A stretch of 64,000 nt of DNA. Source: an uncultured Chloroflexia bacterium (GTDB lineage: Bacteria; Chloroflexota; Limnocylindria; Limnocylindrales; CSP1-4). Of this stretch, positions 31,823 through 37,277 are shown piece after piece. Position 1 is the stretch's first letter. Each line of letters opens with the position of its first letter. Both the position numbers and the translations under genes were made by a program. The notes under the pieces were generated by a model. That model did not search any database, was not told where the DNA came from, and saw only the letters and a program-made list of their open reading frames with translations. Where the stretch lies: contig CAWAGP010000010.1 of NCBI GenBank assembly GCA_963781705.1, forward strand, positions 997,427 to 1,061,426. Reading direction: 5' to 3'.

Positions 31823-32092
31823 GTGCCGCTGGCGCGGGAAATGAAGGAAGGGATCGTGGCTGAACATGCGCGATCCGAGGCAGATACAGGCTCACCAGAG
31901 GTCCAGATCGCTCTCCTGACGGAGCGCATCAAGGGATTGACCGAGCACCTGCGCAGCTTCCCCAAGGACAACCACTCGCGTCGCGGCCTGCTCAAGCTCG
32001 TCGGCCAGCGTCGTCGCCTGCTTGCGTACCTGATGCGCAAGGACAACGCTCGATATCGCGCCCTGATCGGCGCCCTCGGACTGCGCCGCTAG
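31823..32092 (+). CDS. rpsO: 30S ribosomal protein S15 (start could be 31811, 31823 or 31841)
   Basis: ...[78 protein letters not shown] at about 31813-31818. Confidence 0.85.
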
Positions 32093-32127
32093 CAACGCTG
32101 AACCCGTCCTCCCCGAATGGAGGACTG

Positions 32128-34719
32128 ATGCCAGTCACAACACTGTCGACCGAGTTCGCCGGTCGTACCCTGACCATCGAGACCGGTAAGCTCGCCCTGC
32201 TCGCCGGTGGCTCGGTCACCGTCCGCTACGGCGACACGATGCTGCTCGGAACGGCCAACCGCTCCGAACCGCGACCCGGGCTCGACTTCTTCCCGATGAC
32301 GATCGAGTTCGAGGAGCGCATGTATGCCGCGGGCAAAATCCCGGGCGGCTTCATCAAGCGCGAGTCGCGCCCGTCGGAGGCGGCCATCCTCGCCGCTCGG
32401 CTGACCGACCGGCCTATCCGGCCGCTCTTCCCGGAGGGTTACAAGGACGACGTCCAGATCGTGTTGACGGTCCTGTCGACCGACCAGGAGAACGATCCCG
32501 ACATCATCGGCACCATTGCCGCATCTGCCGCGCTGACGATCAGCGAAATCCCCTTCAACGGACCGGTCGCAGCGGTTCGCGTCGGGCGCATCGACGGCGA
32601 GCTCGTGCTCAACCCGACGGTCAGCCAGCTCGCCGACTCAGAGCTGGACCTTGTCGTCTCAGGCACGCGTGACGCGATCATGATGGTCGAGGCCGGCGCC
32701 AAGATCGTGCCCGAGTCGGTCATGGCCGAGGCGATCATGTTCGGCCACCGCTCGCTGGCGCCGATCGTCGAGCTGCAGGAGCAACTCCGCGCCCAGGTCG
32801 GCAAGGCCAAGCGCATCCCCTACATCGAGCCCAGCGTCGGCTCGCTCCTCGCCTTCGTCGATGCGATGCAGAACGACCAGCCGTTCGTGGTCTTCGACGT
32901 GGAGACCACCAGCCGCGATGTCAAGCAGGGCGCGCTTGTCGAGATCGGTGCCGTCAAGGTAAATCACGGCAAGATCGAAGATCGCTGGTCGACGCTCGTC
33001 AATCCGGGCGGGTCCATCGTCGGCCGCCAACTGCACGGCATCACCGACGCCGACGTCAAGGACGCACCCGCGCCGGCCGCCGCAGCCCAGCAATTCTTCG
33101 ACTGGGCCGGTGACGCACTGCTCGTCGGCCACAACGTCGGCTTCGACATCGGCTTCCTCGAGGCGGCCACCGACAACACCCGCAAAGTCGCGCAGGGCAC
33201 CTACCTCGACACGCTGGTCATCGCCCGCGAGGCGTACCCGGACGGCGATCTGAAGCTGGGGGACCTTGCGCGGTTCTTCGAGCTCGAGACCCAGCCGAAT
33301 CATCGAGCGCTGCCCGATGCCGAGGCAACTGCCCAGCTCCTGATCCGTCTGGGCAGCGATCTGCCTGATCGGATCAACACCTATCGCGAGACGGTCGCCA
33401 ATGCCATCCGCTCACTGCGCAACGGCACCTCGAAGGCGGATGCCAACACGCAGATCGATGGCGCGCGTGCGACGGCCCGCTTCTCGAAGTCGCTTGCATC
33501 GCTGCTCCATAAGAAGGTCGTGCGCGAGTTGGTGCTCAGCGAGGGCATCCGCATGGACGGCCGCGACACGGAGACCATTCGGCCGATCTCGGTCGAGGTC
33601 GGCCTGCTGCCGCGCGCTCACGGCTCGGCGCTCTTCACACGCGGCGAGACGCAGGCGTTGAGTGTCGCCACGCTGGGCCCGTCGTCCGACGTCCAGCGCA
33701 TCGACACGATCAGCCCCGAGGAATCGAAGCGTTATCTGCATCACTACAACTTCCCGCCCTATTCGGTGGGTGAGAACAAGCCCATGCGCGGTCCGTCGCG
33801 ACGCGACATCGGTCACGGCGCGCTGGCCGAGCGGGCACTGCTGCCCGTCCTGCCCGCGCAGGAGGATTTCCCGTACGTCATCCGCGTCGTATCCGAGGCG
33901 GTCAGCTCGAACGGCTCGACCTCGATGGCCTCGACCTGCGGCTCAACGCTCGCGCTGATGGATGCCGGGGTACCGATCAAGGCCCCCGTCGCCGGCGCGG
34001 CGATGGGCCTCATCAGCGGCAGTGACGGCAAGTTCGCCGTGCTGACCGACATCATGGGTAAGGAAGACTCCTTCGGCGACATGGACTTCAAGGTCACGGG
34101 CACGTCCGAGGGCATCACCGCGGTCCAGATGGACATCAAGGTCCAGGGCATCAACGAGGACATCATCCGCACCGGGCTGGAGAAGGCTCGCGTGGCGCGC
34201 CTGTTCATCCTGGGCAAGATGCTCGAGGTGATGCCCGAGACGCGCGACGAGATGAGCGCCTATGCCCCGCGCATCATCACCATCAAGATCAACCCGGAGA
34301 AGATCCGCGACATCATCGGCAAGGGCGGTGCCACGATCCGCAAGATCCAGGAGGACACCGGCACCAACATCAACGTCGAGGACGACGGCACGGTCGAGAT
34401 CGCGGCGGTCAACGCCGACAACTCGCGTGCGGCCATCCAGATGATCGAGGGGCTGACGCGCGAGGTTGAAGTCGGCAGCCTGTACCTGGGCAAGGTGACT
34501 CGCCTTATGACCTTCGGCGCGTTCGTCGAGATCCTGCCCGGCAAGGAAGGCCTCGTGCGCATCGGCGAACTGGCCGACTACCACGTGCCCACGGTCGAGG
34601 ACGTCGTGTCCGTCGGCGACGAGATCATGGTCGTGGTGACCGAGATCGACCGCCAGGGACGCGTCAACCTGTCGCGCAAGGCGGCCATGCAGCGCCATCT
34701 GGCCAAGTCGCCCGCCTGA
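32128..34719 (+). CDS. pnp: Polyribonucleotide nucleotidyltransferase (PNPase) with an inserted DnaQ-like DEDDh 3'-5' exonuclease domain (863 aa versus about 700-740 usual)
   Basis: RNase PH-1 (res 1-230), then all-alpha linker interrupted at residues ~249-410 by FVVFDVETT...LLVGHNVGFDIGFL...HRALPDAEATAQLL (Exo I/II/III). Then RMDGRDTETIRP...LPRAHGSALFTRGETQAL (RNase PH-2), KH (IIGKGGATIRKIQEDTG), S1 (GKVTRLMTFGAFVEILPGKEGLVRI). Single uninterrupted ORF. Confidence 0.9.
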   Translation: MPVTTLSTEFAGRTLTIETGKLALLAGGSVTVRYGDTMLLGTANRSEPRPGLDFFPMTIEFEERMYAAGKIPGGFIKRESRPSEAAILAARLTDRPIRPLFPEGYKDDVQIVLTVLSTDQENDPDIIGTIAASAALTISEIPFNGPVAAVRVGRIDGELVLNPTVSQLADSELDLVVSGTRDAIMMVEAGAKIVPESVMAEAIMFGHRSLAPIVELQEQLRAQVGKAKRIPYIEPSVGSLLAFVDAMQNDQPFVVFDVETTSRDVKQGALVEIGAVKVNHGKIEDRWSTLVNPGGSIVGRQLHGITDADVKDAPAPAAAAQQFFDWAGDALLVGHNVGFDIGFLEAATDNTRKVAQGTYLDTLVIAREAYPDGDLKLGDLARFFELETQPNHRALPDAEATAQLLIRLGSDLPDRINTYRETVANAIRSLRNGTSKADANTQIDGARATARFSKSLASLLHKKVVRELVLSEGIRMDGRDTETIRPISVEVGLLPRAHGSALFTRGETQALSVATLGPSSDVQRIDTISPEESKRYLHHYNFPPYSVGENKPMRGPSRRDIGHGALAERALLPVLPAQEDFPYVIRVVSEAVSSNGSTSMASTCGSTLALMDAGVPIKAPVAGAAMGLISGSDGKFAVLTDIMGKEDSFGDMDFKVTGTSEGITAVQMDIKVQGINEDIIRTGLEKARVARLFILGKMLEVMPETRDEMSAYAPRIITIKINPEKIRDIIGKGGATIRKIQEDTGTNINVEDDGTVEIAAVNADNSRAAIQMIEGLTREVEVGSLYLGKVTRLMTFGAFVEILPGKEGLVRIGELADYHVPTVEDVVSVGDEIMVVVTEIDRQGRVNLSRKAAMQRHLAKSPA

Positions 34720-34896
34720 GCGCACCCCAATCGCACAAGCGACGGCCCGCCCTCTGGGGCGGGCCGTTCTTCATTGGCTGTCCGCGACTACCGGCCGGCC
34801 GGTATCATCATCACGCGTGCCCAACCGAACACTCGCCATGAGTCTTGCCTTGTCAAGAAGGGGTCCCGCGGGCGCGTATGGAAGCAGTCGGTTAGC

Positions 34897-35616
34897 GTGA
34901 CGCCGGACGAACGACGGCGCGTGCTCGACGGCATAGCGGCCGAAATCACGACGTGCGACCGTTGCCCGCTGCATACCGGCCGAACGCGCGCGGTGCCGGG
35001 GGAGGGCAACCCGGAGACAGAGGTCGTGTTCGTCGGTGAGGGCCCGGGGTACAACGAAGACCAGCAGGGCCGTCCGTTCGTTGGTGCGGCCGGCGGCCTG
35101 CTGACGGAGCTGCTCCGTGCCATCGGCTGGCAGCGCCAGGACGTATTCATCACCAACGTCGTGAAGTGCCGGCCGCCGGCCAACCGCGACCCGGAACCAG
35201 CCGAGATCGCTGCCTGCGCGCCTTACCTGCAACGACAGCTGGAGGCGCTCGACCCGGCTCTCATCATCACGCTCGGGCGCCACTCGCTGCAGACGTTCAT
35301 GCCGGGTGCGCGCATCGGCGCGGCGCACGGCACCGAGCGGGCAGTCGATCCGGCCACCGGCGCGCGAGACGCAACGAGCTATGCCATGTACCACCCGGCG
35401 GCCGCGCTCCGCCAGGGCAGTCTCAGGGAAACGATGTTCGAGGACATGGCCGCAGTACCGGACACGCTCATTCGCGCCCGCGAACGCCGCGCGGTGGCAG
35501 TTCCGTCGCCGGCCGACGACCCGGCCGAGCCCATCGATTTGCACCCGGCCATTGACGAGCTCGAGAGCGCGCCAGCGACCACCAGTCCTGAACCGCAACT
35601 GGAGCTATTCCGATGA
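34897..35616 (+). CDS. Uracil-DNA glycosylase, family 4 (UdgA/UdgB-like, Fe-S). Start uncertain; the ORF track begins at 34774.
   Basis: ITTCDRCPLHTGRTRAVPGEGNPETEVVFVGEGPGYNEDQQGRPFVGAAGGLL...ITNVVKCRPPANRDP...HPAAALR, the family-4 UDG motifs. Confidence 0.8.
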   Translation: MTPDERRRVLDGIAAEITTCDRCPLHTGRTRAVPGEGNPETEVVFVGEGPGYNEDQQGRPFVGAAGGLLTELLRAIGWQRQDVFITNVVKCRPPANRDPEPAEIAACAPYLQRQLEALDPALIITLGRHSLQTFMPGARIGAAHGTERAVDPATGARDATSYAMYHPAAALRQGSLRETMFEDMAAVPDTLIRARERRAVAVPSPADDPAEPIDLHPAIDELESAPATTSPEPQLELFR

Positions 35617-37277
35617 AAGAACCCGCTGCCGACACGTTGCGCATCCTGCCGCTGGGCGGCGTCGGCGAGATCGGCAAGAACATGACCGTCTTCGAGTACG
35701 GCGACGAGATCGTCATCATCGACTGTGGGCTGATGTTTCCGGAAGAGGAGATGTTCGGCATCGACTTCGTCATCCCGGACGTGACGTATCTGCGCGATCG
35801 GCACGACAAGGTCAAGGCGTTCCTGATCACCCACGCCCATGAGGACCACATCGGTGGGTTGCCGTTCATCCTGCCCTACTTCCCGGGCGTGCCCATCTAT
35901 GCCTCGACGCTGGCCCAGGGCCTGCTCGGCATCAAGATCAAGGAGCACAAACTCCACAAGAACCCGCTGATGGCCTTCGAGCCCGGCCAGACGGTATCGC
36001 TTGGCTCCTTCAGCGCCACGCCGTTCCGGATCGGCCATTCGATCCCCGACGCCATGGGCATCGCCCTGCGCACCCCGCTCGGGCTCGTCGTGCATACCGG
36101 CGACTTCAAGTTCGACCACACCCCGGTCGACGGCAAGATGTCCGATCTCCACGCCCTCGCCAACTACGGCCAGGAGGGTGTGCTGTGCCTGATGTCGGAT
36201 TCCACGCGCGCCGAGAACCCCGGTTACACGCCTTCAGAGCGGACCGTGGGAGCAGCCTTCCACGACATCATGGAGGGCCTCGAGGGACGCGTCATCGTGG
36301 CCACCTTCGCCAGCAATATCGCGCGCATTCAGCAGGTCTTCGACGCGGCGCGCACCTTCAACCGCAAGGTGGCGGTCATCGGTCGCTCGATGGAGCAGAA
36401 CGTGCGCATCGCGACCGAACTCGGCTATCTCAAGTACCCGGCCGACCAGCTCGTCAGCAAGGATCGGCTCAAGGACATTCCCGACAACGAGCTGGTTATC
36501 GCCACCACCGGCGCCCAGGGCGAGCCGATGGCCGGGCTGGCGCGCATGGCCAACCGCGATCACCGCTGGGTCGAGATCAAGCCAGGCGACACGGTCATCG
36601 TCTCGGCCAGCCCGATCCCCGGCAACGAGGAGGTTGTCGGCCGGACCATCGACAACCTGTTCAAGAACGGGGCAAATGTCTTCTACCACGACATTCGCCG
36701 CGCCCACGTATCGGGCCACGCCAGCCAGGAAGAGCTGAAGCTGATGCTCAACCTGACCCGGCCGCGCCACTTCATACCGATCCACGGCGAGTTCCGCATG
36801 CTCGTGCAGCACGGTCGCGTGGCCCAGGAGCTGGGGGTGTCGCCGGCGAACATCTTCATCATCGAGAACGGCCAGCCGATCGACTTCTCGGCCGACGGCG
36901 CCCGGCGGGCGACTCCGGTCGAGGCCGGCTACGTATACGTCGACGGGTTGTCGGTGGGCGAGGTGGGCGACGTCGTCCTGCGCGACCGGCGCATGCTCGC
37001 GTCGGACGGCATGTTCCTGGTCGTGGTGACGGTGGACAAGCAGACGGGCGCGCTCATCGGCCCGCCTGAGATCGTGACGCGCGGTTTCGTGACCGGGCCG
37101 GACGATCCGGTGGTGGCCGGCGCCGCGGAGCAGGTGGCCGCCGCAATCCACATGCCCGGCGAACACACCAGTGAGGTCGGCCTGCTCAAGGCGCAGATCA
37201 AGGACAGCCTGAGCCAGTACCTGTTCGAGCAGACCCGTCGCCGGCCGATGGTCTTTCCCGTGGTGGTCGAGGTCTAG
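35613..37277 (+). CDS. rnj: Ribonuclease J (metallo-beta-lactamase / beta-CASP)
   Basis: LRILPLGGVGEIGKNMTVFEY...ITHAHEDHIGGLP (HxHxDH)...beta-CASP and C-terminal domain, 554 aa. Confidence 0.95.
   Translation: MKEPAADTLRILPLGGVGEIGKNMTVFEYGDEIVIIDCGLMFPEEEMFGIDFVIPDVTYLRDRHDKVKAFLITHAHEDHIGGLPFILPYFPGVPIYASTLAQGLLGIKIKEHKLHKNPLMAFEPGQTVSLGSFSATPFRIGHSIPDAMGIALRTPLGLVVHTGDFKFDHTPVDGKMSDLHALANYGQEGVLCLMSDSTRAENPGYTPSERTVGAAFHDIMEGLEGRVIVATFASNIARIQQVFDAARTFNRKVAVIGRSMEQNVRIATELGYLKYPADQLVSKDRLKDIPDNELVIATTGAQGEPMAGLARMANRDHRWVEIKPGDTVIVSASPIPGNEEVVGRTIDNLFKNGANVFYHDIRRAHVSGHASQEELKLMLNLTRPRHFIPIHGEFRMLVQHGRVAQELGVSPANIFIIENGQPIDFSADGARRATPVEAGYVYVDGLSVGEVGDVVLRDRRMLASDGMFLVVVTVDKQTGALIGPPEIVTRGFVTGPDDPVVAGAAEQVAAAIHMPGEHTSEVGLLKAQIKDSLSQYLFEQTRRRPMVFPVVVEV

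Follow-up and report, generated by a model that had tools for sequence, protein, structure and literature searches.

The rpsO-pnp locus and its PNPase

The window, i.e. the whole stretch of 64,000 nucleotides that was analysed, contains an uninterrupted pnp reading frame of 863 aa plus stop, encoding a polynucleotide phosphorylase (PNPase) with an inserted DEDDh exonuclease domain. The rpsO gene for ribosomal protein S15, the canonical partner of pnp, lies upstream (Table 1). Synteny was checked over 80 loci; rpsO and pnp were adjoining and co-oriented in 76 of them, and the remaining four showed either pnp alone or pnp plus genes downstream of it. A family-4 uracil-DNA glycosylase (UDG) gene is found 3' of pnp in the lineage, either directly or a few genes on. 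The insert-bearing protein is the single housekeeping PNPase of its Limnocylindria subgroup and occupies the rpsO-pnp position. A preliminary description made from the sequence had read an 863-aa ORF without stop or frameshift and had called it the housekeeping copy in its normal rpsO-pnp context. Both statements were borne out, by ORF reading and by the neighbouring genes (Ribosomal_S15 match and synteny), respectively.

Table 1. Features of the rpsO-pnp locus. Positions are those of the window; aa numbers refer to the PNPase.
Feature	Position	Strand	Evidence
rpsO (ribosomal protein S15), GTG start, GGAGGA ahead	31823..32092	+	Ribosomal_S15 E=4e-35, sequence reading
pnp ORF, PNPase with inserted DEDDh domain	32128..34719	+	ORF reading, TIGR03591, model superposition
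First RNase PH-like domain and RNase_PH_C, aa 1-227	32128..32808	+	Pfam, alignment to solved PNPase
First helix of helical linker, aa 228-249 (modelled helix 238-248)	32809..32874	+	Modelled secondary structure
Inserted DEDDh 3'-5' exonuclease domain, aa 250-410	32875..33357	+	Pfam RNase_T, TIGR00573, model
Exo I, F-D257-V-E259-T-T	32893..32910	+	D257, E259, T260, T261 invariant, 120/120 orthologs
Exo II, G-H335-N-V-G-F-D340	33127..33147	+	H335, D340 invariant
Exo III, H392-R-A-L-P-D397	33301..33318	+	H392, D397 invariant
Continuous 38-residue helix (predicted), aa 394-431	33307..33420	+	Both independent models, pLDDT ~88-95
Rest of helical linker, aa 411-472 (modelled helices to 431, 436-450, 454-472)	33358..33543	+	Models
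Second, catalytic RNase PH domain, aa 473-705	33544..34242	+	Pfam, residue conservation
KH (aa 706-775) and S1 (aa 776-855) RNA-binding domains	34243..34692	+	KH_1 E=5.7e-13; S1 E=2.2e-16

As shown in profile searches, the protein scored 952 bits against the NCBIfam PNPase equivalog TIGR03591 (cut-off 525) and 947 bits against NF008805 (cut-off 471), in both cases as two stretches flanking the insert. Pfam searches found RNase_PH and RNase_PH_C twice each, KH_1 and S1, in agreement with the normal RNase PH-1, RNase PH-2, KH and S1 modules of the preliminary description. The modelled core superimposed on solved PNPases with TM-scores of 0.85-0.92 (3cdi, 0.92 with an rmsd of 2.8 Å; 3gcm, about 0.9). 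The PH1-helical-PH2-KH-S1 order, the catalytic and phosphate motifs, the rpsO-pnp synteny and the core fold are all shared with canonical PNPases (E. coli, C. crescentus and S. antibioticus; TIGR03591). The end of the first PH domain is marked by G225-K-x-K228, which is conserved in the alignment. The second PH domain contains RRDIGHG (558-564), SSNGS (593-597) and E646-D647-x3-D651-M-D653-F-K655, in which we take D647, D653 and K655 to be the equivalents of E. coli D486, D492 and K494. Its catalytic and phosphate-binding residues showed no variation among 120 orthologs, between the two major subclades or relative to an insert-less sister group. S1 was the most conserved segment of the protein, and its AlphaFold model was poor. 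A homotrimeric ring with phosphorolytic activity would be expected, as for the PNPase family.

Compared with canonical PNPases, the channel-aperture loop of the first PH domain reads F75-I-K-R78 instead of FFRR, the rpsO-pnp spacer is only 35 nt, and the helical domain is interrupted behind its first helix by a 161-aa DEDDh domain. This insert was absent from all solved PNPases and from the rest of the top 150 representatives at 50% identity.

The inserted DEDDh domain and its attachment

The solved PNPase 5yjj aligned only to aa 6-227 and 459-854, which indicates that aa 228-458 replace a helical domain of about 73 aa. The insertion point was located between helices 1 and 2 of the helical linker domain. 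In the models, a 4-residue link joins linker helix 1 to strand 1 of the exonuclease domain, and the 38-residue helix belongs to two domains at once, as the Exo III helix of the exonuclease and as part of the helical domain of PNPase. It is possible that this helix serves as a rigid mount for the exonuclease domain. The linker helices were still predicted (238-248, 411-431, 436-450 and 454-472) although the exonuclease domain splits the linker. Of the linker profile PF03726, only positions 55-81 matched (aa 454-480), and the score of 20.2 bits stayed below the cut-off (24.6). Conservation was low in the first linker helix, with a relative dN/dS of 0.58 and a mean top-residue frequency of 0.67, and the remainder (aa 411-472) was the least conserved part of the protein.

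Pfam RNase_T (PF00929) matched aa 254-405 over its whole profile (1-164 of 164; E=2.4e-28; 100.2 bits, cut-off 24). The insert alone also exceeded the cut-off of TIGR00573, the domain-level model for epsilon-family exonucleases (90.3 bits against 71.5). It missed the equivalog cut-offs for epsilon proper (TIGR01406, dnaQ_proteo; 77.6 against 222.7), PolC (118 against 873), DinG exo (113 against 789) and PRK07883 (140 against 495). Since these equivalogs imply full-length partner domains, the insert shares only the exonuclease domain with them. The insert model (pLDDT 84) had a predicted RNase H-like alpha/beta fold. Foldseek placed the exonuclease domains of DinG and PolC and the epsilon subunit nearest to it (probability 1.00; TM-scores up to 0.81, relative to the target), and Pol III epsilon matched with TM-scores of 0.78-0.80 and an rmsd of 2.8 Å. 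Taking sequence and structure together, the nearest relatives were all DNA enzymes, namely PolC exo, DinG exo, Pol III epsilon, ExoX and the actinobacterial-type DEDD exonuclease family PRK07883. By sequence and by fold, the insert belongs to the Pol III epsilon/PolC/DinG-exo subgroup.

Equivalogs of Orn, RNase T and other nanoRNases were absent among the 25 listed of the 28 NCBIfam matches to the insert. In Foldseek, Orn and RNase T appeared from rank 18 with TM-scores of about 0.6, below DinG, PolC, epsilon and ExoX. By the families listed and this weaker structural match, the insert is not of the Orn or RNase T type.

The five catalytic residues D257, E259, D340, H392 and D397 were invariant in 120 of 120 orthologs, and the DEDHD pattern was present in all 79 species having coverage at these positions. 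The D and E of Exo I were retained in all 80 species loci, including a truncated one (L078). The H-x4-D spacing in Exo III assigns the domain to the 'h' subtype. The epsilon, PolC and DinG exo domains have the same fold, the same D-E-D-D and H-x4-D residues and also the motifs HGI(T) and GHN; in SaDinG a His equivalent to H335, H90, touches the phosphate of the second nucleotide (PMC12345164). In contrast to these relatives, the host protein is neither a DNA polymerase nor a helicase; it is an RNA phosphorylase, and the modelled C-terminal helix has 38 residues and is fused into the helical bundle of the host. The preliminary description had placed a complete DEDDh domain inside the linker of an intact PNPase, at 32872-33357 (corresponding to aa 249-410). 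Pfam and NCBIfam matches to both the RNase_T and the PNPase domains, together with residue conservation, confirmed this reading. All the exo motifs that it quoted were present, and only its numbering of the Exo I residues as D254/E256 was off by three.

Recurrence, probable single gain and selection

The same architecture was found in at least 240 independent clusters at 90% identity (120 + 120; NCBI, ENA and JGI) and in 131 species-representative genomes, some of them on multi-megabase contigs. The carriers were all Chloroflexota MAGs, mostly labelled Limnocylindria. Some insert-bearing contigs carry labels of other phyla given by their submitters. In all 80 retained loci the insert lay inside pnp at one identical site.

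The preliminary description had raised the concern of a chimeric assembly; in such a case, a dnaQ-like gene would have been joined into pnp during assembly or binning. Hundreds of independent assemblies, drawn from three archives and including multi-megabase contigs, show the identical architecture at the same site, which refutes such a join, and the continuous reading frame and uniform GC3 also argue against it; we give this explanation practically no chance. GC and GC3 of the insert were those of the remaining gene. A few related MAG copies were frameshifted. The frameshifts were scattered over the whole gene, and 5 of the 6 affected loci came from one MAG series (MFD), which fits indel errors.

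The carriers formed one clade with bootstrap support of 100/100. The insert-less sister group, also supported at 100/100 (P0123, P0442 and about 120 clusters), has its PNPase gene in the orthologous rpsO-pnp...UDG-RNase J-FtsK position. The sister proteins are 55-57% identical to the insert-bearing ones and have the same catalytic residues. They differ in that their PF03726 helical domain (about 75-80 aa) is unbroken and has no exonuclease domain, and in that they end in an Arg/Gly-rich C-terminal tail, which is missing from the insert-bearing proteins. The fact that the carriers are monophyletic and the sister has the orthologous gene without insert indicates that the domain was most likely gained once; most parsimoniously, it was acquired in the common ancestor of the Limnocylindria subgroup. 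The insert-less ortholog in the same neighbourhood provides a natural control.

The relative dN/dS was 0.39 for the insert, 0.16-0.18 for the PH cores and 0.58-0.81 for the helical linkers. Purifying selection on the insert was thus intermediate between cores and linkers, and the insert's rate of evolution was about 2.5 times that of the PH cores. This faster evolution could suit a non-catalytic role, with the insert as a binding platform or as a structural element that caps or gates the pore of the helical domain. The helical domain is also a hotspot of length variation in other PNPases (P0157, P0184), and it affects activity. However, the five catalytic residues together with T260, T261 and H335 were invariant even in the subclade whose insert region (insert and flanking helices) is only 37-41% identical. 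This indicates that catalysis is selected, and a non-catalytic role is very improbable. The insert is very probably a real exonuclease domain that is under selection and catalytically competent.

Possible roles of the insert

PNPase is a universal RNA-degrading enzyme, and Limnocylindria are uncultivated bacteria of soil and freshwater. We propose that the insert-bearing protein would be a bifunctional 3'-5' exonuclease. RNA would enter through the S1/KH face, and phosphorolysis within the ring would turn it into NDPs. The hydrolytic domain, fixed by the shared 38-residue helix on the opposite face near the side pore to the phosphorolytic site, would hydrolyse the 3' ends left unfinished by phosphorolysis. 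Its most probable substrates would be the short limit oligonucleotides released by PNPase, which would be converted to NMPs with no need for phosphate. The outcome would be a built-in finishing activity resembling that of nanoRNases. We give an even chance to this explanation as a whole, i.e. a DEDDh domain acquired once, a bifunctional enzyme and hydrolytic finishing after phosphorolysis. The specific role in finishing oligonucleotides is proposed tentatively.

Short oligoribonucleotides remain after the action of exoribonucleases, and a dedicated enzyme is needed for them (PMC9779919, PMC10570053). Clearing PNPase leftovers, the role suggested here by analogy, is what nanoRNases do. Orn/REXO2 and RNase T share the predicted 3'-5' hydrolytic mechanism of the insert, and Orn and RNase T also its DEDDh superfamily, but the insert falls in another subgroup, which weakens the short-oligonucleotide argument. 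A preference for DNA among its nearest characterised relatives and its faster evolution relative to the PH cores also count against oligonucleotide finishing. The PNPase helical domain lies opposite the S1/KH face and contributes to a pore through which the active site can be reached by a second path (PMC2723993). Nurmohamed et al. viewed this side pore as a route for NDP and phosphate rather than RNA (PMC2723993), which is a further point against the finishing role. The preliminary description had based that role on Orn and RNase T. The epsilon/PolC/DinG subgroup weakens this rationale; the role itself is still plausible, but membership of the family does not imply it. Orn and RNase T are obligate homodimers, whereas the domain here would come as three copies on a trimer.

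The characterised members of the Pol III epsilon/PolC/DinG-exo subgroup act mainly on ssDNA, and some of them on RNA too. The domain might therefore act on DNA or RNA:DNA hybrids, as an ssDNA exonuclease or in the removal of R-loop RNA during repair or replication stress. Bacterial PNPases have been implicated in DNA repair, and a UDG gene lies downstream of pnp in the lineage. BsDinG favours ssDNA, needs Mn2+ to cleave ssRNA, and can degrade RNA that is paired with DNA in a hybrid. However, the neighbourhood with UDG and RNase J also occurs in the insert-less sister and does not track the insert. The host is an rpsO-linked RNA-decay enzyme with fully conserved KH/S1 and phosphorolytic site. 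The sugar specificity of DEDDh enzymes is not readable from the subgroup; the SaDinG exo domain digests to mononucleotides and accepts RNA as well as DNA (PMC12345164). We consider a role on DNA unlikely.

It is also conceivable, with a rather low probability, that the domain works in parallel on the 3' ends of full-length RNA. It would then trim tails, including heteropolymeric tails made by PNPase, or nibble ends that cannot be threaded, much like PolC or a degradosome partner that is covalently attached. In PolC the exonuclease domain is likewise embedded in a larger nucleotidyl-transfer enzyme, the polymerase polypeptide (NCBIfam PolC 415-601 of 1445; 9qpc), and the short, rigid junctions of the models suggest a fixed geometry. 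RNase D is the DEDD partner of PNPase in the Caulobacter degradosome (PMC4245959), a partnership that is here covalent in one polypeptide, and REXO2 acts downstream of the human PNPase-SUV3 complex (PMC7261184). Against such parallel action, the helical face lies opposite the S1/KH entry, so that a long substrate bound by KH/S1 must pass through or around the ring.

Under the preferred reading, hydrolytic finishing after phosphorolysis, a comparison with the eukaryotic exosome suggests itself. The exosome has an inert PH ring, the hydrolytic enzyme Rrp44, which sits where the channel ends, opposite the S1/KH cap, and the DEDD enzyme Rrp6. By analogy, the protein described here would likewise join a hydrolytic 3'-5' exonuclease to a PH-domain ring, on the face opposite S1/KH. 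It differs in that the ring keeps its phosphorolytic sites and RNA threading to the hydrolytic site is only putative. The nuclease class also differs, being DEDDh here, RNase II-like in Rrp44, and DEDDy in Rrp6 and RNase D. A full convergence would have the exonuclease held rigidly at the far end of the channel, RNA or its last few nucleotides passed from the phosphorolytic to the DEDDh sites inside a single trimeric particle, and a switch between phosphorolysis and hydrolysis set by phosphate and NDP supply. RNA would be degraded completely to mononucleotides and a separate nanoRNase would be dispensable in the lineage. This extension is speculative and we think it improbable. If the insert finishes limit products, it would represent a new solution to nanoRNA beside the stand-alone Orn, NrnA, NrnB and NrnC, and a bacterial parallel to the recruitment of hydrolytic nucleases by the exosome.

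Bacterial and human PNPase structures have been described with the same PH-helical-PH-KH-S1 organisation (PMC2723993). The insert-bearing protein is an exception to an architecture regarded as fixed, and the lineage-wide, selected insertion would bring phosphorolytic and hydrolytic 3'-5' activities together in a single polypeptide. In the searchable literature, a recent Limnocylindria genomics paper included, we found no publication on a PNPase with this insertion, in line with the preliminary description, which knew of none. Its suggestion of a new architecture holds in so far as the architecture is undescribed in that literature; it is not unique to this genome and was already present in public databases. 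Wide occurrence lowers the rarity of the insertion, not its biology.

Insert-bearing genes are named 'polyribonucleotide nucleotidyltransferase' in NCBI, and either this or 'DNA polymerase III epsilon subunit family exonuclease' in JGI. The latter name, given to many such genes, could mislead automated inventories of replication and repair in Limnocylindria. The insert itself may be a clean marker for the subgroup, including contigs submitted under other phyla.

Domains and catalytic centres of the PNPase

The pnp ORF encodes an uninterrupted protein in which Pfam recognised the complete PNPase set (two RNase_PH, two RNase_PH_C, KH_1 and S1). TIGR03591, the NCBIfam PNPase equivalog, scored 952 bits against a cut-off of 525, in two matched stretches on either side of the insert. 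The solved PNPase 5yjj aligned with residues 6-227 and 459-854 of the protein, so that residues 228-458 stand in place of the helical domain of about 73 residues. The phosphorolytic centre was intact, with all its motifs conserved and, as shown by alignment, common to insert-bearing proteins and insert-less orthologs. By every testable criterion the protein is a PNPase, save that its helical domain is non-contiguous.

Coordinates of features in the window, in the encoded PNPase and in related sequences
Feature	Nucleotide position	Residues	Particulars
rpsO-pnp spacer	32093-32127		35 nt
Spacer hairpin	32106-32125		perfect 7-bp stem, GTCCTCC - CCGAAT - GGAGGAC
pnp ORF	32128..34719 (+)		863 aa
Channel-aperture loop	32350-32361	75-78	F-I-K-R in insert-bearing group
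Exonuclease insert, limits as first described	32872-33357	249-410
Exo I		D257, E259	FDVETT, present by alignment
Exo II		D340	GHNVGFD, present by alignment
Exo III		H392, D397	HRALPD, present by alignment
Phosphorolytic centre		558-564	RRDIGHG
Phosphorolytic centre		593-597	SSNGS
Phosphorolytic centre			E646-D647...D651-M-D653-F-K655
S1 domain	34465-34716	780-863
UDG and RNase J genes	34774-37277
UDG stop/rnj start overlap	35613-35616
UDG and RNase J region, locus L073	12015-14350
UDG and RNase J region, locus L081	11474-13766
Arg/Gly-rich tail, sister lineage		alignment A3 columns ~872-927	C-termini of P0442, P0123, P0472, P0497

The domain search bore out the DEDDh exonuclease domain that the preliminary description had proposed within this PNPase. 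RNase_T (PF00929) matched residues 254-405 over its entire profile (1-164 of 164; E=2.4e-28; 100 bits against a gathering score of 24), and the insert alone passed TIGR00573, a domain-level model of epsilon-family exonucleases (90 bits against a cut-off of 71.5). All the claimed motifs were found in the ORF at the residues listed in the table; the earlier numbering of Exo I was wrong by three.

T260, T261 and H335 as well as the five DEDDh residues were invariant in 120 of 120 orthologs, and the D-E-D-H-D pattern was kept in all 79 species with coverage at these positions, including a subclade in which the insert has elsewhere diverged to 37-41% identity. Apparent motif loss in 19 of the 80 related pnp loci, indicated by a strict regular-expression screen, was overturned by direct alignment. 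The intact loci failing the screen vary only at neighbouring residues (VVVDVETTG, PDVEAT), two others run off the end of a contig and six carry frameshifts across the whole gene; the catalytic residues of the insert were present wherever sequence coverage exists.

Mean top-residue frequency was 0.91 in the PH cores, 0.82 in the exonuclease insert and 0.62-0.67 in the helical flanks. The corresponding relative dN/dS values were 0.16-0.18, 0.39 and 0.58-0.81, of which the ranking is meaningful and the absolute values are unreliable because a GC3 of about 0.9 compresses dS. The insert thus is under purifying selection, less strict than in the PH cores and stricter than in the linker, and its catalytic residues are constrained absolutely. 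This pattern argues against a purely structural role, and that the insert is a non-catalytic gate is very unlikely for the same reason. Judged from sequence, the insert is very probably a real, selected and catalytically competent exonuclease, and one housekeeping polypeptide was shown by alignment to carry two conserved, predicted catalytic centres.

The loop at the channel aperture, the FFRR loop of E. coli PNPase, was invariant from F75 to R78 in two insert-bearing subclades; the Limnocylindrus type is Y-I-K-R and the insert-less sister lineage has F-P-R-R. The second aromatic residue of this loop, which stacks on RNA in other PNPases, was absent from insert-bearing and sister PNPases.

Distribution and origin of the insert

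The best 120 database clusters (NCBI, ENA and JGI; 78-100% identity) all carried PF00929 together with PNPase domains, and 131 species proved to encode the insert when one genome of each species was scanned. A second subclade, typified by locus L073, has about 62% identity overall and 37-41% over the insert and flanking helices and adds at least 120 clusters of the same architecture; a third includes 'Candidatus Limnocylindrus sp.'. The search for insert-bearing orthologs proposed in the preliminary description yielded these species and at least 240 clusters in total, and the architecture proved widespread in the lineage, an outcome which that description had said would reduce its novelty and leave the biology untouched. 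All 80 retained loci come from Chloroflexota MAGs, most of them under the label Candidatus Limnocylindria or Limnocylindrales, and every locus has the insert at the identical site inside pnp. That a chimeric assembly join placed the insert in pnp is hardly conceivable, given its recurrence at one site in so many species, in three archives and on some multi-megabase contigs. The insert may be useful for rapid recognition of the lineage.

Six related pnp copies (L062, L065-L068 and L070), five of them from the MFD MAG series, were frameshifted, and the ORF was truncated in L003, L005, L011, L054, L056 and L079; most of this combined set came from MFD MAGs. The shifts are scattered over the whole gene, as indel errors would be, and this looks unlike decay of the insert or pseudogenisation. 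Two contigs of MAG STL-CHL39 (L056 and L057) each carried an insert-bearing pnp, one intact and the other with a truncated ORF (~520 aa), which may reflect either a duplication or a mixture of strains in the bin. Labels of other taxa on insert-bearing contigs (Dormiibacterota for L032 and L074; Sulfotelmatobacter for L035; Anaerolineaceae for L006, L010, L018, L030 and L064), some from other phyla, suggest mis-binning or coarse labelling.

We searched 1.84 billion representatives (50% identity) exhaustively. The best 150 matches, among which an independent DEDDh insertion in a very distant PNPase would not rank, contained one full-length insert-bearing representative (P0121) and fragments; all others aligned in at least two stretches with a gap at the insert position. 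RNase_T was found in none of the over-long PNPases considered as candidates for an independent insertion (P0124, P0128, P0130, P0133, P0157, P0184, P0240 and P0267), the extra length of which consisted of additional S1/KH copies, tails, helical repeats or low-complexity linkers. Each of P0130 and P0133 contains three S1 domains. In P0157, from marine sediment, a K/E-rich helical motif, 'IEDxxER', occurs three times at residues ~209-368 and the helical domain is about 160 aa longer; P0184 has a low-complexity Ala/Ser/Gly linker at the helical domain (residues ~209-378) and three KH domains. Changes of length seem to be readily tolerated at the helical domain of PNPase.

The closest insert-less PNPases (about 740 aa; 55-57% identity by full-length alignment) have an intact PF03726 helical domain, and several are labelled Candidatus Limnocylindria. 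Their locus, rpsO-pnp-(three genes)-UDG-RNase J-FtsK, is orthologous to the insert-bearing one, which makes them sister-lineage orthologs and not paralogs. A second PNPase copy in the same genomes is ruled out by this synteny, since the insert-less gene occupies the rpsO-pnp...UDG-RNase J locus itself. A neighbour-joining tree was built from the 669 columns of the PNPase core left after those of the insert had been taken out. In it the insert-bearing sequences and the sister group were each monophyletic with a bootstrap of 100/100, and the two grouped together with 85/100. The simplest history would be that the ancestor of the insert-bearing group acquired the domain once. GC (0.665) and GC3 (0.85) of the insert equal those of the rest of the gene, as expected of an old event; a recent horizontal insertion is ruled out by this match, the monophyly of the carriers and the deep divergence of the insert region between subclades.

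Four sister PNPases bear an Arg/Gly-rich tail of about 40-50 residues after S1 (...ERQRAERARY..RGGG..GGGGGFRRGGPPR), which is missing from all insert-bearing PNPases. It is possible that the tail and the exonuclease insert are alternative lineage-specific additions.

Full-text literature searches, and a 2026 paper on Limnocylindria genomics that was screened for matching terms, gave no description of a PNPase-DEDDh fusion. Insert-bearing sequences (among them P0003-P0120 and P0298-P0417) are already public, named 'polyribonucleotide nucleotidyltransferase' by NCBI and, in JGI/IMG, either PNPase or, for many, 'DNA polymerase III epsilon subunit family exonuclease'. Automated inventories could count pnp as dnaQ, or overlook the extra domain. 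The domain insertion defines a lineage, affects a very conserved enzyme and has gone unreported, and a natural insert-less control is available for it. It would be of interest for RNA-decay specialists; the hosts are uncultivated, and any function of the insert is a prediction.

Subgroup, geometry and predicted role of the inserted domain

The best sequence models for the insert were the N-terminal exonuclease of the PRK07883 'DEDD exonuclease domain-containing' family and the exonucleases of PolC and DinG; scores lay far under the full-length cut-offs, so only the exonuclease domain is held in common. Models of Orn or RNase T were absent from the 25 families listed out of 28 NCBIfam hits. The nearest solved folds to a model of residues 228-470 (pLDDT 84.3, pTM 0.81) were the exonucleases of S. 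aureus DinG and of PolC, Pol III epsilon (TM 0.78-0.80, rmsd 2.8 A), a Cas2-fused DnaQ domain and ExoX; Orn, REXO2 and RNase T fitted less well (TM ~0.6). The insert belongs with the DEDDh domains of the epsilon/PolC/DinG type and falls outside the Orn and RNase T families. The DnaQ-like assignment first given to it held at the superfamily level, and the functional analogy with Orn and RNase T drew no backing from its subgroup.

In the full-length model (pLDDT 76.7, pTM 0.73) the PNPase core fitted the solved PNPases 3cdi (TM 0.92, rmsd 2.8 A) and 3gcm (TM 0.90); the extra domain was absent from every solved PNPase matched. S1 had a pLDDT below 50 despite a clear Pfam match and the highest conservation of any segment, probably a modelling quirk of a shallow alignment and not disorder. 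The insert starts four residues after modelled helix 238-248. The Exo III helix with H392 and D397 continues unbroken into the helical domain as one 38-residue helix (394-431), reproduced in the domain-only model and followed by helices 436-450 and 454-472. These short junctions and the shared helix suggest that the orientation of the insert is fixed, not loosely tethered. The helical domain of E. coli PNPase occupies the ring face opposite S1/KH and is part of a pore forming a second active-site route, proposed for NDP and phosphate traffic (PMC2723993). From this position, three exonuclease domains per trimer should sit on the exit side of the ring near the pores.

As the likeliest mechanism we tentatively propose a finishing role for the DEDDh domain. 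RNA would thread in from the S1/KH face and be phosphorolysed to NDPs, and the DEDDh domain on the opposite face would hydrolyse 3' ends left incomplete by phosphorolysis, giving NMPs with no phosphate required. The likeliest substrates would be short limit oligonucleotides. Exoribonucleases leave oligonucleotides of this kind, and cells otherwise require a dedicated nanoRNase for clearing them (PMC9779919; PMC10570053).

The exonuclease domain of SaDinG was reported to be active on ssDNA and RNA and to digest ssDNA to mononucleotides (PMC12345164), and BsDinG, whose preferred substrate is ssDNA, also digests RNA within hybrids and needs Mn2+ to cleave ssRNA (PMC12525004). Substrate choice of the insert is not readable from its subgroup membership; action on DNA or R-loops is considered unlikely.

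The nearest functional parallels are, by analogy, partnerships between a PH-ring enzyme and a hydrolytic exonuclease. In the eukaryotic exosome a PH ring is paired with the hydrolytic Rrp44 and Rrp6. The Caulobacter degradosome joins the same two kinds of enzyme through a partnership with RNase D (PMC4245959). Human PNPase-SUV3, with REXO2 acting afterwards (PMC7261184), is a third such parallel. In the PNPase described here the partnership is covalent. A rather improbable alternative to the finishing role is that the domain works in parallel and trims the 3' ends or tails of long RNAs, as a PolC-type built-in exonuclease or a covalent degradosome partner would.

Gene neighbourhood and the rpsO-pnp spacer

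The ORF for ribosomal protein S15, preceded by ribF, lies upstream of pnp, and genes for a family-4 uracil-DNA glycosylase (UDG) and RNase J follow it. The order ribF-rpsO-pnp-UDG-rnj was complete in 49 of the 80 loci; the others have part of this set in unchanged order, as would result from contigs cut short, and the divergent subclade conforms as well. The neighbourhood across the 80 loci agrees with the earlier view of this gene as the housekeeping copy in its rpsO-pnp context.

The 3' arm of the spacer hairpin is the pnp Shine-Dalgarno sequence and ends 4 nt ahead of the ATG. The same stem with other loop sequences was found upstream of pnp in most of the loci inspected in the window's own subclade (L001, L002, L009, L020, L025 and L036) and was not evident in the L073 subclade or the insert-less sister. 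Rfam gave no match anywhere in the 64-kb window, hairpin included. The hairpin could be a translational control element for pnp.

The UDG-RNase J pair, whose reading frames overlap, was kept in insert-bearing and insert-less lineages, with FtsK next in sister loci and extra genes sometimes between pnp and UDG. This conservation near pnp indicates that the class has two major enzymes of RNA decay, PNPase and RNase J, encoded in one cluster with a DNA-repair gene between them.
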